Below are positions 18,001-27,000 of a stretch of 64,000 nt of DNA, in pieces. Position 1 is the first letter of the stretch; every line of letters starts with the position of its first letter. The position numbers are program-made. Source of the DNA: Escherichia coli (GTDB taxonomy: Bacteria; Pseudomonadota; Gammaproteobacteria; Enterobacterales; Enterobacteriaceae); NCBI RefSeq assembly GCF_002854065.1, contig NZ_CP024147.1; one strand, 5' to 3'.

Positions 18001-21000
18001 TATAGCGTAAGGTACTGTAAAGTCGCCAGAGGGTTAAAATTCAGACTGCTGATAAATGCAATACTGCCTGATGCGCTATGCCAATCAGGCCTACGCAGTC
18101 CTTGCAATATATTGAATTTGGACGATTTTGTAGGCCTGGTAAGGCGTTTACGCCGCATCTGGCATAAATAAAGCGCACTTTATCAACAATCTACATTTGT
18201 ACCCGTAACGCTATGCTTCCGGTGGCAGACAGACGCCAATTCCGCCAATTCCACAGTAACCATACGGGTTTTTATGCAGATATTGCTGGTGGTCATCTTC
18301 GGCATAATAAAACGGTGTGGCGTTAGCGATTTCCGTGGTGATGTGACGATCATCATCGGCGGCAAGCATCGCCGCCTGAAAACGTTCCAGACTGGCGCGA
18401 GCTGCGGCATCCTGTTCTGGGGTCAGCGGATAAATCGCTGAACGATACTGCGTGCCGTGGTCATTGCCCTGACGCATTCCCTGGGCGGGATCGTGATTCT
18501 CCCAAAATACCTGTAGCAACTGCTCATAGCTGATGACGGAAGGATCGTAAACAATGCGTACCGCTTCGGCATGACCCGTATCACCGGAGCACACTTCCCG
18601 ATAAGTCGGATTTGGCGTATAGCCTCCGGTATAGCCTGCGGCGGTGCTGTAAACGCCGGGTAACTGCCAGAACAGACGCTCCACACCCCAGAAACAACCC
18701 ATCGCAAAAATGGCAATCTCCATTCCGTCAGGTACATTGGTCATTGAGTGACCGTTGACCGCATGCAGCGTGGCTACGGGCATCGGGGTGTTACGTCCAG
18801 GCAGGGCATCGGCGGGGGAAACCAGATGCTTTTTATCAAATAAACTCATGGTGTCGCTCTCCCGAAAATCGGTCATTGGGGTTAAGGTTGTAACAAGAGG
18901 CGTATTTGCACACAATAACCACCGTGAATAGGTCTAAAGTAAAACATAAGAAATATTTGGGGTTTAGTCTGCTTTTTAATCCATATTACTGGATTTTTGT
19001 TAAGCCGTTTAACGGCGTTCCAGGGGCAGGAAAAAAGGATATTCAGGAGAAAATGTGCGCTATATCCGACAGTTATGCTGTGTAAGCTTACTCTGCTTAA
19101 GCGGATCTGCCGTCGCCGCGAACGTCCGTCTACAGGTCGAGGGGGTATCGGGACAGCTGGAAAAGAACGTTCGTGCGCAGCTTTCTACGATTGAAAGTGA
19201 TGAAGTGACGCCAGACCGTCGCTTTCGCGCACGCGTCGATGATGCCATCCGCGAAGGTCTGAAAGCGCTGGGTTATTACCAGCCGACCATTGAATTTGAT
19301 CTCCGTCCACCGCCAAAGAAAGGGCGGCAGGTATTGATCGCCAAAGTCACGCCAGGCGTGCCGGTGTTAATTGGCGGCACCGATGTGGTATTGCGCGGCG
19401 GCGCGCGGACCGATAAAGACTATTTGAAATTGCTCGATACTCGCCCGGCTATTGGCACGGTGCTGAACCAGGGCGATTATGAAAATTTCAAAAAGTCCTT
19501 AACCAGCATTGCGTTGCGTAAAGGTTATTTCGATAGCGAATTTACCAAAGCGCAGCTGGGCATTGCGCTCGGCCTGCATAAAGCCTTCTGGGATATTGAT
19601 TATAACAGTGGCGAACGTTACCGCTTTGGGCATGTGACCTTTGAAGGATCACAAATCCGCGATGAATACCTGCAAAATCTGGTGCCGTTTAAAGAGGGCG
19701 ATGAGTACGAATCGAAAGATCTGGCGGAACTGAACCGCCGACTTTCTGCTACCGGCTGGTTTAACTCGGTGGTGGTGGCTCCACAATTTGATAAAGCGCG
19801 CGAAACGAAAGTATTACCATTGACGGGCGTGGTTTCGCCGCGAACAGAAAACACCATCGAAACCGGGGTCGGTTACTCTACGGACGTGGGACCGCGCGTG
19901 AAAGCGACGTGGAAAAAACCGTGGATGAACTCATACGGTCACAGTCTGACCACCAGTACCAGTATTTCCGCGCCGGAACAGATCCTCGACTTCAGCTATA
20001 AAATGCCGCTGCTGAAGAATCCACTGGAACAATATTATTTGGTGCAGGGCGGTTTTAAGCGCACTGACCTGAACGATACCGAATCTGACTCCACTACGCT
20101 GGTGGCTTCTCGCTACTGGGATCTCTCCAGCGGCTGGCAGCGTGCCATTAACCTGCGCTGGAGTCTCGACCACTTTACCCAGGGTGAAATTACCAACACC
20201 ACGATGCTGTTTTATCCTGGGGTGATGATTAGCCGCACGCGTTCTCGTGGTGGCCTGATGCCAACCTGGGGCGACTCGCAACGCTACTCTATCGACTACT
20301 CCAACACTGCCTGGGGCTCAGATGTCGATTTCTCCGTTTTCCAGGCACAAAACGTCTGGATCCGCACACTGTACGATCGCCATCGTTTTGTGACACGCGG
20401 CACGCTGGGCTGGATTGAAACCGGTGATTTCGACAAAGTACCGCCGGATCTGCGTTTTTTCGCCGGGGGCGACCGCAGTATTCGTGGCTACAAATACAAA
20501 TCTATCGCTCCGAAATACGCCAACGGTGACCTGAAAGGGGCCTCGAAGTTGATAACCGGATCGCTGGAGTACCAGTACAACGTGACCGGAAAATGGTGGG
20601 GCGCGGTGTTTGTCGATAGTGGCGAAGCGGTAAGCGATATTCGCCGCAGCGACTTTAAAACCGGTACCGGGGTCGGCGTACGCTGGGAATCGCCGGTCGG
20701 GCCAATCAAACTCGATTTTGCCGTACCGGTCGCGGATAAAGACGAACACGGGTTACAGTTTTACATCGGTCTGGGGCCAGAATTATGAGTTTATGGAAAA
20801 AAATCAGCCTCGGCGTGGTTATCGTTATCTTACTGTTGCTGGGATCGGTGGCGTTTCTGGTGGGCACCACCAGCGGCCTGCATCTGGTATTTAAAGCGGC
20901 GGATCGCTGGGTGCCAGGACTGGATGTTGGCAAGGTCACCGGCGGCTGGCGCGATCTCACCTTGTCTGACGTTCGTTATGAGCAGCCAGGCGTGGCGGTA

Positions 21001-24000: not shown

Positions 24001-27000
24001 GGGCGCTTCCATGCCTATGGTCAGGATCTGATTGTGCGTAAAGGTGAGTTACTGTTCTCTGGTCCGCCGGATCAACCGTATCTTAATATTGAAGCTATTC
24101 GTAACCCGGATGCTACAGAAGACGACGTAATCGCCGGAGTTCGCGTCACTGGTCTGGCGGACGAACCGAAAGCGGAGATCTTCTCTGACCCGGCGATGTC
24201 GCAACAAGCTGCATTGTCTTATTTGCTACGTGGACAAGGGCTGGAGAGCGATCAGAGCGACAGTGCGGCAATGACCTCGATGCTGATTGGTCTGGGGGTT
24301 GCGCAAAGTGGCCAGATTGTGGGTAAAATCGGCGAGACGTTTGGCGTAAGCAATTTAGCGCTCGACACCCAGGGAGTAGGCGACTCCTCCCAGGTAGTGG
24401 TCAGCGGCTATGTATTGCCAGGTCTGCAAGTGAAATACGGCGTGGGTATATTTGACTCTATAGCAACACTCACGTTACGTTATCGCCTGATGCCTAAGCT
24501 ATATCTGGAAGCCGTGTCTGGTGTAGACCAGGCACTGGATTTGCTCTATCAGTTCGAGTTTTAGCAATGCGAATATTTGTCTACGGCAGTTTACGCCACA
24601 AACAAGGCAACAGTCACTGGATGACCAATGCCCAGTTACTGGGCGATTTCAGTATCGATAACTACCAGTTGTATAGCCTGGGCCACTATCCAGGCGCAGT
24701 TCCGGGGAACGGAACAGTACACGGTGAAGTTTATCGTATTGACAACGCCACGCTGGCCGAACTTGATGCCTTGCGCACCAGGGGCGGTGAATACGCGCGC
24801 CAGTTGATTCAGACGCCGTACGGGAGTGCATGGATGTACGTTTATCAACGACCCGTCGATGGATTAAAGCTAATTGAAAGCGGCGACTGGTTAGACAGGG
24901 ATAAGTAATAATAAAAGCACGCCACCTTCGGGTGGCGTTGTTTTATGCGATGTATCTCGCGATTTTTTTTTGTAACTTTTCCATCTTTTGCTTTTCTCTC
25001 CGAGCCGCTTTCCATATCTGCAATCGCATAAAAAACTCTGCTGGCGTTCACAAATGTGCAGGGGTAAAACGGGGGCACGCTTTGAACGGTGAGTATGAGT
25101 GAGGTCGGCTAACTTCCAGCAAGTGGCTATGAACAGCAAAATGGTGGTCGGGTTTGCTTGTTCTTACCGTTCAAGCCTTGCAACCGCTGAGAATAATGAT
25201 GGTGGAATAGAGAGTTTATTTATCGCGGGCATAAAAAAACCCTTACTAACCGAAGCCCGGCGTTCAGGGTTATTGCGCTAGAAGAACTTATTTATTCTTT
25301 GCGCGCTCGAAGGAAGCAACGATTTCAGCTTTAGCGGCTTCTGCGTTTTCCCAACCTTCAACTTTCACCCACTTGCCTTTTTCGAGGTCTTTGTAGTGCT
25401 CGAAGAAGTGAGCGATCTGCGCTTTCAGCAGCTCTGGCAGATCGTTAACGTCTTTAATGTGATCGTATTCTTTGCTCAGCTTTGTGTGCGGAACAGCAAT
25501 CAGTTTCGCATCTTCACCGGCTTCGTCGGTCATTTTCAGAACGCCAACCGGACGGCAACGGATCACAGAACCCGGCTGCAGCGGGTACGGAGTCGGGACC
25601 AGTACGTCAACCGGGTCACCGTCCAGAGACAGGGTGTGGTTGATGTAACCGTAGTTGCACGGATAGAACATCGCGGTGGACATGAAGCGGTCAACGAACA
25701 GTGCGCCGCTCTCTTTGTCGATTTCGTATTTGATCGGATCTGCGTTAGCCGGGATCTCAATAACAACGTAGATGTCTTCCGGCAGATCTTTACCCGCAGG
25801 GACGTTGAGTAAGCTCATGTCTGTTTCCTTTAAAAATATGTGGCAAACAAGTGCCGAGTATTATAGCCAACTCGCGCCGAATGTCTTCGCTTGTTTTCGT
25901 CTTCATTTTCCTTTTTCGCCAATTTTAAGACGGTATACAGAGCAGGAAAATCCATAACCGTAGCCGCATTTTTCATAGTGAGATGAAAGCGATTACAAAC
26001 TTGTGATTAACGTTTTATTTACTTCTTTGAAGTGTGATGTAACGCAATCCGTTACATAACGAATTGTCTATAGTTTTTTCGCGAACATCTTTTCACCAAT
26101 AATAATTACCCCGACGAGGACAACCCTATGTGGAAACGCTTACTTGTAGTCTCTGCAGTCTCGGCAGCCATGTCGTCTATGGCGTTGGCCGCTCCATTAA
26201 CCGTAGGATTTTCGCAGGTCGGATCGGAATCTGGCTGGCGCGCCGCAGAAACCAATGTGGCGAAAAGTGAGGCCGAAAAACGCGGAATTACGCTGAAAAT
26301 TGCCGATGGTCAGCAAAAGCAGGAAAACCAGATTAAAGCGGTACGTTCCTTCGTCGCGCAAGGGGTGGATGCGATCTTTATCGCTCCGGTGGTTGCGACT
26401 GGTTGGGAACCGGTATTAAAAGAGGCGAAAGATGCCGAAATCCCGGTCTTCTTGCTCGATCGTTCTATTGATGTGAAAGACAAATCTCTCTATATGACCA
26501 CCGTCACTGCCGACAACATTCTCGAAGGCAAGTTGATTGGTGACTGGCTGGTAAAAGAAGTGAATGGCAAACCATGCAACGTGGTGGAGCTGCAGGGCAC
26601 TGTTGGGGCCAGCGTCGCCATTGACCGTAAGAAAGGCTTTGCCGAAGCCATTAAGAATGCGCCAAATATCAAAATTATCCGCTCGCAGTCAGGTGACTTC
26701 ACCCGCAGTAAAGGCAAAGAAGTCATGGAGAGCTTTATCAAAGCGGAAAACAACGGCAAAAACATCTGCATGGTTTACGCCCATAACGACGACATGGTGA
26801 TTGGTGCAATTCAGGCAATTAAAGAAGCGGGCCTGAAACCGGGCAAAGATATTCTGACAGGTTCTATCGACGGCGTACCGGATATCTACAAAGCGATGAT
26901 TGATGGCGAAGCGAACGCCAGTGTTGAACTGACGCCGAATATGGCAGGTCCCGCCTTCGACGCGCTGGAGAAATACAAAAAAGACGGCACCATGCCTGAA

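Follow-up and report, generated by a model that had tools for sequence, protein, structure and literature searches.

Stop/start codon overlaps at tamA-tamB-ytfP and other operon junctions in the core chromosome of Escherichia coli

Introduction

We analyzed a window of 64,000 nucleotides (nt) of the Escherichia coli chromosome (contig NZ_CP024147.1 of assembly GCF_002854065.1), in which the genes of the tamA-tamB-ytfP operon and the pairs ulaE/ulaF, ytfT/yjfF, holC/valS and lptF/lptG meet at overlapping or closely abutting stop and start codons. With a probability that we put at about 80%, the six junctions are standard operon-internal stop/start overlaps of the E. coli core genome that likely act by termination-reinitiation, with an importance that varies by pair. 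By this mechanism, a ribosome ending the upstream gene would stay on the mRNA and restart at the adjacent start codon, and the upstream ribosome may also melt local structure, allowing a new ribosome to bind. That stop and start codons overlap, and that such overlaps can couple translation, is textbook knowledge. The tamA/tamB overlap, an antisense RNA over the start of ytfP and a sigma-54 site close to it are all already in the literature, and the finding is an ordinary one. The only additions of this work are the invariance of the junction geometry over 80 species and a synonymous footprint that matches an antisense promoter, with one block unexplained.

Geometry and gene models of the six junctions

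The window covers core E. coli chromosome, beginning at ulaE and ending midway through lptG; apart from a few strain-specific differences, it is colinear with 4.42-4.49 Mb of the K-12 chromosome. An 8-kb probe around tamA-ytfQ matched all but one of 5,426 complete E. coli genomes (5,425), and in several the identity was 100%. The six junctions were as follows (negative spacings are overlaps).

20785-20788, plus strand: tamA/tamB, ATGA junction, spacing -4, read from the sequence; the tamB ATG shares the tamA TGA
24562-24569, plus strand: tamB/ytfP, TAGcaATG junction, spacing +2; stop TAG at 24562-24564, spacer CA, ytfP ATG at 24567
977-981, plus strand: ulaE/ulaF, TAATG junction, spacing -1; ulaE 125-979, ulaF 979-1665, shared base 979
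29749-29762, plus strand: ytfT/yjfF, 14-nt overlap; ytfT 28740-29762, yjfF 29749-30744
59593-59597, minus strand: holC/valS, TAATG junction, spacing -1; holC 59595-60038, valS 56740-59595, shared base 59595
63268-63272, plus strand: lptF/lptG, TGATG junction, spacing -1; lptF 62170-63270, lptG from the shared base 63270

A first-pass annotation of the window had described these overlaps and had taken them to support co-translation of each unit. Its geometry proved exact at single-base resolution: the tamA stop overlaps the tamB start as ATGA, ytfP starts 2 bp past the tamB stop, the TAATG of ulaE/ulaF, the TGATG of lptF/lptG, the 14-bp overlap of ytfT/yjfF and the overlap of holC/valS are all present to the base, and tamA (19055), yjfF (29749) and lptF (62170) do carry the GTG starts that it gave them. 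The interval 20785-24570 on which it centered begins at base 1 of tamB and ends at base 4 of ytfP. The genes and related features needed below are these.

19055-20788, plus strand: tamA coding sequence, 577 amino acids, GTG start, TGA stop (open reading frame list, RefSeq and K-12 annotation)
20785-24564, plus strand: tamB coding sequence, 1259 amino acids (open reading frame list, annotation)
24567-24908, plus strand: ytfP coding sequence, 113 amino acids, gamma-glutamylcyclotransferase-like (open reading frame list, annotation)
24919-24938, plus strand: terminator-like hairpin with a T-run after ytfP, the end of the operon
62170-62172, plus strand: lptF GTG start (annotation), with no upstream alternative

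The two genes of every pair lie adjacent on the same strand, as co-directional open reading frames must for a coupled pair. Within the tamA-tamB-ytfP stretch, a terminator-like hairpin was found after ytfP only, and the three genes form a predicted operon with a sigma-E promoter. The terminator follows ytfP directly, and ppa comes next.

Some of the overlaps could in principle be annotation artefacts, with the true downstream start elsewhere, for example at an ATG in codon 9 of yjfF (spacing +10) or at a GTG before lptG (spacing -4). In-frame alternatives were indeed present. In yjfF, a TTG at codon 6 and an ATG at codon 9, the latter leaving a 10-nt gap, lie downstream of the annotated start. 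In lptG, a GTG 3 nt upstream of the annotated ATG (context GTGATG, 63267-63272) would give GTGA (-4) instead of TGATG (-1). The start of ytfT has the same GTGATG context (28737-28742), and the K-12 annotation begins at the GTG whereas PGAP begins at the ATG 3 nt later. Against this explanation, we mapped each coding sequence annotated in the RefSeq strains AH65, CUWW06 and 2017.17.03CC and in K-12 MG1655 to the window with a check of frame integrity, and the RefSeq and K-12 models agreed at all six junctions and kept intact reading frames on transfer. No in-frame start was available upstream of the annotated one in tamB, ytfP, valS, lptF or yjfF, and the tamA GTG was the sole in-frame start between the upstream stop (at -45 nt) and codon 50. 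In yjfF, only the annotated GTG has a properly spaced Shine-Dalgarno (SD) sequence (AAGGAG, 7 nt ahead of it); neither the TTG nor the ATG has one. Residues 1-113 of YtfP were identical to PDB 1XHS, and the N-terminus of LptF was that of PDB 6MHU (chain F, residues 1-366), with homologues from other genera aligning from residue 1. This agreement supports the predicted gene models of YtfP and LptF, the codon used in vivo being a separate question. We consider an annotation artefact at any of these junctions very improbable.

Conservation of the tamA-tamB-ytfP junctions

To place the operon junctions in a wider comparison, one genome per species was scanned with TamA, which gave 80 loci of Enterobacteriaceae whose TamA sequences were 81-99% identical. 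The cross-species figures given here are for the junctions of the tamA-tamB-ytfP operon. The -4 overlap of tamA/tamB was present in 80 of 80 loci, and the +2 spacing of tamB/ytfP in all 76 loci that reached ytfP. The GTG start of tamA was likewise invariant in the 80 loci, and the motif caggag(a/g)a..GTG was kept in nearly all of them.

Normalised synonymous entropy averaged about 0.63 over the codon alignments. The 12-codon windows lying over the two junctions were among the four lowest of 1,649 windows (z=-3.6 for tamA/tamB and z=-4.0 for tamB/ytfP), in tests that treat codon columns as independent. Synonymous entropy fell to 0.33 in the last 12 codons of tamA (0.63 in the rest of the gene, p=8e-5), to 0.29 in the last 30 codons of tamB (0.63 in the rest, p=2e-9) and to 0.29 in the first 18 codons of ytfP, the rest of which was at background level (0.64, p=2e-5). 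Codons 2 and 3 of ytfP are the rare CGA and ATA, found in 77/77 and 75/77 species, respectively. At the ends of msrA, paeA and ppa, which stand free in the same loci, no significant synonymous drop was seen. The drop is therefore specific to the junctions, and these controls ruled out reduced synonymous variation as a general property of gene ends.

Comparison with known overlapping gene pairs

Overlaps were no more frequent in the window than elsewhere. Five of the 33 same-strand neighbour pairs (15%) overlapped, and ten pairs had spacings between -14 and +13; in most prokaryotes, an overlap is seen in about 15% of co-directional pairs (PMC6728339), so the window is not enriched and its fraction is typical of prokaryotes. 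The enrichment of the overlap class itself beyond chance is real and long known. Across all prokaryotes the enriched spacings are -4 and -1 (PMC12548453). The pairs described here have the same geometry and nothing sets them apart from that class, with ytfT/yjfF (-14) lying outside the enriched spacings. In reporter studies, coupling was best at spacings of -4 to +3 nt and fell steeply for longer overlaps (PMC12548453); five of the six junctions are within this range (-4, +2, -1, -1 and -1) and ytfT/yjfF is outside it.

The closest experimentally tested example of these junctions is ydbH-ynbE, in which an ATGA overlap likewise stands at the end of a very long gene of the AsmA family, YdbH being an AsmA-like paralogue of TamB (PMC11126948). 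That pair is strictly coupled by termination-reinitiation, as established by reporters with transcript controls (PMC6728339; discussed in PMC11126948). The likeness has limits. There, the long gene comes first and coupling needs intragenic SD motifs, whereas tamB is both the downstream partner of tamA, with a weak GGGG, and the upstream partner of ytfP, at +2 and with no SD sequence.

Ribosome binding sites, RNA structure and independent initiation

The junctions differed in how well the downstream gene could bind ribosomes by itself. Pairing with the anti-SD sequence was weak or lacking for tamB (GGGG, -4.7 kcal/mol), ytfP (-2.5 kcal/mol) and valS (-3.3 kcal/mol), and strong SD sequences lay inside the upstream gene for ulaF (-9.3 kcal/mol), yjfF (-8.2 kcal/mol) and lptG (-8.3 kcal/mol). 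In the tamA-tamB region, the following sites were located.

19045-19049, plus strand: tamA SD sequence AGGAG, 5 nt ahead of the GTG
20773-20776, plus strand: weak SD-like GGGG of tamB in the last tamA codons, anti-SD duplex -4.7 kcal/mol

The GGG codon of the SD-like element of tamB was kept in 78/80 species. The weak SD sequences of tamB and ytfP, together with their conserved junctions, fit translation that depends on the upstream gene. The strong sites of ulaF and lptG mean that these two genes could initiate independently.

These differences bear on an alternative in which the overlaps arose as a side effect of genome compaction and of the easy change of ATG plus A to TGA, and the downstream genes bind ribosomes independently with little or no coupling. 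The strong SD sequences of ulaF, yjfF and lptG favour it, as do the 16-fold higher translation of valS relative to holC, the lack of any predicted stable structure over a start codon and the opinion in a review that the abundance of the -4 spacing probably reflects ease of evolution (PMC12548453). Among native E. coli ATGA pairs that were tested, bioBF was the one in five that initiated de novo, and the other four, ydbH-ynbE included, were strictly coupled (PMC6728339), which stands on the opposite side. Independent initiation also sits poorly with the lack of good SD sites at tamB and ytfP, with the geometry that is invariant in 80 species, and with synonymous sites that are far more conserved than those of free-standing gene ends. 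We regard it as an unlikely account.

Several results weigh against coupling at the junctions, and some of them are what independent initiation would lead one to expect. The three downstream genes ulaF, yjfF and lptG carry strong SD sites of their own. The six junction regions folded no more stably than shuffled sequence (z -0.4 to +1.1), and no stable structure occluding a start codon was predicted. Helices predicted at the junctions by RNAalifold had no compensatory changes, and a helix that would sequester the start had no support from covariation. The helix over the tamB AUGA of E. coli was 86% paired across species, and its covariation was no better than that of shuffled alignments; RNAalifold also paired UGGGGC in the SD-like region of tamB with the invariant GCCUCG of tamB codons 8-10, again with no covariation. 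A coupling mechanism based on unfolding of structure is accordingly neither supported nor excluded by the folding data. The 80 comparison loci all belong to one family, with TamA identities of 81% or more. A direct measurement of translation for tamA or tamB was not found in the literature searched. Finally, the published values for holC and valS contradict obligatory coupling of that pair, as detailed below.

Expression of the individual pairs

In the ribosome profiling of Burkhardt et al. 2017 (PMC5318159, Supplementary file 1), valS had a ribosome density of 691, an mRNA level of 583 and a translation efficiency of 1.19, and holC had values of 42, 221 and 0.19, respectively. The valS/holC ratios calculated from these values were 16.5x for ribosome density, 6.3x for translation efficiency and 2.6x for mRNA. 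Downstream ribosome flux at holC/valS therefore exceeded upstream flux instead of staying at or below it, and a density of valS 16 times that of holC means that most valS initiation is de novo. Ribosome profiling was the check that the first-pass annotation had itself proposed, and for holC/valS it went against co-translation. A promoter candidate was found inside holC by consensus scan only.

59693-59722, minus strand: sigma-70-like promoter inside holC, TTGCCA-18-TAGACT with a TG (extended -10), about 100 nt before valS

This candidate fits the 2.6-fold higher mRNA level of valS. For lptF/lptG, a published proteome table gave about equal mass fractions of LptF and LptG, around 6.6e-5.

The tables of PMC5318159 contain ytfP, valS and holC, and tamA, tamB, lptF and lptG are absent from them. 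No published per-gene translation values for tamA, tamB, ulaEF or ytfT/yjfF were found in the tables searched; the TetRP start-site tables, the Zhang 2022 tables and the supplement of the NaF paper had no entries for these genes. A premature-stop or other translation experiment on any of the six pairs was not found in the literature searched. For tamA/tamB there is a report from Pseudomonas aeruginosa PA14, where the tamA stop overlaps the tamB start as it does here and the overlap was blamed for a failed complementation with tamB alone (PMC13098762); complementation problems are known in Salmonella as well. The P. aeruginosa report mentions the overlap as an aside with no coupling experiment and does not discuss ytfP (PMC13098762).

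Antisense RNA, sigma-54 site and conserved block at tamB/ytfP

At tamB/ytfP, the junction was found to coincide with signals of other kinds.

24525-24581, minus strand: candidate cis-antisense RNA ECS021 (57 nt), which runs over the start codon of ytfP, the stop codon of tamB and the 13 tamB codons before that stop
24588-24617, minus strand: putative antisense promoter, -10 TAAACT at 24593-24588, -35 GTGACT at 24617-24612, 18-nt spacer, from a reading of the sequence
24529-24545, plus strand: sigma-54 motif CAGGCACTGGATTTGCT inside tamB, GG-N10-GC (-24/-12), present in the window and oriented toward ytfP
24295-24357, strand not assigned: block of about 60 nt in tamB (codons 1174-1194) with frozen synonymous sites, the lowest 12-codon window of the operon alignment (z=-4.2)

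The sequence and coordinates of ECS021 were published by Shinhara et al. 2011 (PMC3175480, supplementary file 4), and the published sequence matched the minus strand of the window from 24581 to 24525. The transcript over the ytfP start is thus exactly the published one. Raghavan et al. 2012 list only 17 antisense RNAs that E. coli and Salmonella have in common, and the one on ytfP is among them; it starts at the same site in both organisms, with read depths of 432 and 550 (PMC3419515, Table 2). The transcript was thereby detected in two independent RNA-seq studies. The published accounts of ECS021 that were consulted do not mention the junction overlap or the conservation in 77 species. ECS021 had no Rfam family in our Rfam scan, and no structure was found for it.

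The -10 hexamer TAAACT lies at positions -12 to -7 relative to the published 5' end of ECS021. On the sense strand it corresponds to ytfP codons 8 and 9, AGT (77/77 species) and TTA (73/77 species); this rare-codon choice is near-invariant even though six codons are available for serine and likewise for leucine. Going into ytfP, the constraint on synonymous sites stops at about codon 18 (position 24620), where the putative -35 element ends. A conserved promoter candidate at the correct distance from the ECS021 start, as expected of a putative antisense RNA, was thus found. The promoter failed a strict consensus scan, and its -35 element is weak.

The sigma-54 motif corresponds to site IS51 of a chromatin immunoprecipitation sequencing study, which lists it in sense orientation with a fold-above-threshold score of 1 (PMC4591121, Table 2). 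The center of IS51 is about 30 nt before ytfP, and the predicted transcription start would give a leader of about 12 nt. Most intragenic sigma-54 sites were reported to be transcriptionally inactive, and no data on a sigma-54-driven transcript at IS51 were found in the literature. The GG and GC cores of IS51 are fixed by invariant Q-A...L-L codons, and synonymous sites within the motif vary. A separate, Nac-regulated transcription unit of ytfP is listed (PMC10100675), and ytfP clears the mRNA-abundance filter of PMC5318159 (mRNA 245), in all tables of which tamA and tamB are absent.

In the block at 24295-24357, almost no synonymous variation was seen in 77 species. No Rfam family, sigma-70 consensus, fitting alternative-frame open reading frame or covariation accounted for it, and an Rfam scan of 18900-25300 gave no matches. 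Three candidates were rejected. No overlapping small open reading frame fitted the frozen blocks; a scan for a sigma-70 consensus promoter of ytfP inside tamB was negative and left just weak candidates read by hand (TAAAAT, 24324-24329); and a search of 24270-24650 for inverted repeats or a protein-binding palindrome gave only short imperfect matches that were not conserved.

At tamB/ytfP, the synonymous constraint coincides with an antisense RNA and its promoter and may therefore have a cause other than coupling, a further point against termination-reinitiation. Much of the conservation at this junction may be due to antisense and transcriptional signals rather than to coupling. In the alternative that follows from this, the conservation at tamB/ytfP and part of ytfP expression would come from a transcript of its own, driven by sigma-54 or an internal promoter, and from the cis-antisense RNA. 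The match of ECS021 to the window, its shared start site in Salmonella, the kept -10 hexamer, the end of the ytfP constraint at codon 18, IS51 just upstream of ytfP, the listed transcription unit and the abundance of ytfP mRNA all speak for it. On the other side, ECS021 was undetected by northern blot, the sigma-54 peak is at threshold with cores that are forced by amino acids, the consensus scan did not recover the antisense promoter, and the +2 spacing is invariant with a start that has no SD sequence and still needs a route for ribosomes. We consider this alternative possible, with odds somewhat below even, and it and coupling are not mutually exclusive.

A more elaborate model would make tamB/ytfP a composite node, in which the conserved antisense RNA masks the SD-less start of ytfP, and ytfP depends entirely on ribosomes that come from tamB or on a sigma-54 transcript that is activated conditionally. 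The antisense promoter would then be encoded in the synonymous sites of ytfP codons 8-17, and 24295-24357 would be part of the control, e.g., as an enhancer or an internal promoter. We regard this model as speculative and rather improbable.

Interpretation of the individual junctions

With these alternatives weighed, we return to termination-reinitiation at standard overlaps as the preferred reading. The geometry, its conservation, the synonymous constraint and the strengths of the SD sequences are direct results, from which we infer coupling to a different degree for each pair. For tamB, reinitiation after tamA is probably the principal source of translation: its SD sequence is weak, and the ATGA is invariant in the Enterobacteriaceae and occurs in Pseudomonas as well. 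From tamB to ytfP, reinitiation probably contributes; ytfP has no real SD sequence, yet there are also the separate transcription unit, the sigma-54 site and the antisense RNA to consider. Coupling is possible from lptF to lptG and from ulaE to ulaF, where the downstream gene also has a strong SD sequence of its own. From ytfT to yjfF, with a -14 overlap and a strong SD sequence at yjfF, coupling is weak at best, and from holC to valS it is quantitatively unimportant. The statement that the overlaps support co-translation of each unit was therefore right in that the geometry permits coupling, which is plausible above all for tamA to tamB, and was too strong as drawn from sequence alone; it does not extend to holC/valS with its 16.5x density ratio or to ytfT/yjfF, and ytfP has the other signals just named.

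Other features of the window

In addition to the junctions, the window has several other features, some of them strain-specific. At 3889-5968, an IS1 element (transposase 5216-5913) adjoins a truncated MFS transporter gene (3937-5152). This region lacks about 7 kb of a metabolic island that is present in AH65 (oxidoreductase, CoA transferase, enoyl-CoA hydratase and others), and compared with K-12, yjfZ and ytfA are replaced. The IS1 arrangement had an exact match in no genome of the collection; the best match was 99.6% in 3 pieces. On the minus strand, cpdB (12512-14475) is 20 nt longer than in K-12 and is not one frame, and the identical sequence of AH65 is annotated as a frameshifted pseudogene. 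The yjgL homologue (51503-53092) is identical to a CUWW06 copy annotated as a pseudogene with a frameshift and an internal stop, and nowhere does the window differ more from K-12 than in this region (about 90% identity or no alignment). The K-12 gene ytfI (at 15405-15410) and the chpS-chpB toxin-antitoxin pair (at 25071-25200) are absent from the strain. The convergent genes cysQ (plus strand) and ytfJ (minus strand) overlap by 11 nt at their 3' ends (15395-15405).

A REP/BIME-type element (Rfam naRNA4) occurs as two tandem copies between holC and pepA (60146-60317), where K-12 has one, and this explains about 190 extra bases; further naRNA4 copies are at 27113-27191 and 33354-33431. Other Rfam matches above the gathering score were Ysr276 antisense to pepA (61151-61345, plus strand), ES239 by cpdB/cysQ (14476-14598, plus strand), and STnc450 and ES036 in the leader region of paeA (17950-18129, minus strand). 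The expected Rfam elements were found, namely the rpsF leader (2314-2398) and the mgtA Mg2+ element (43482-43597).

Implications

The finding matters little beyond correct annotation. At holC/valS, the overlap alone is no proof of coupled expression. In deletion or complementation of single genes, the junction sequences of tamA, tamB, ytfP and lptF/lptG should be kept; otherwise polar effects on translation are to be expected. Synonymous changes within the final 90 codons of tamB or the initial 18 of ytfP would interfere with conserved non-coding signals, among them a published antisense RNA.

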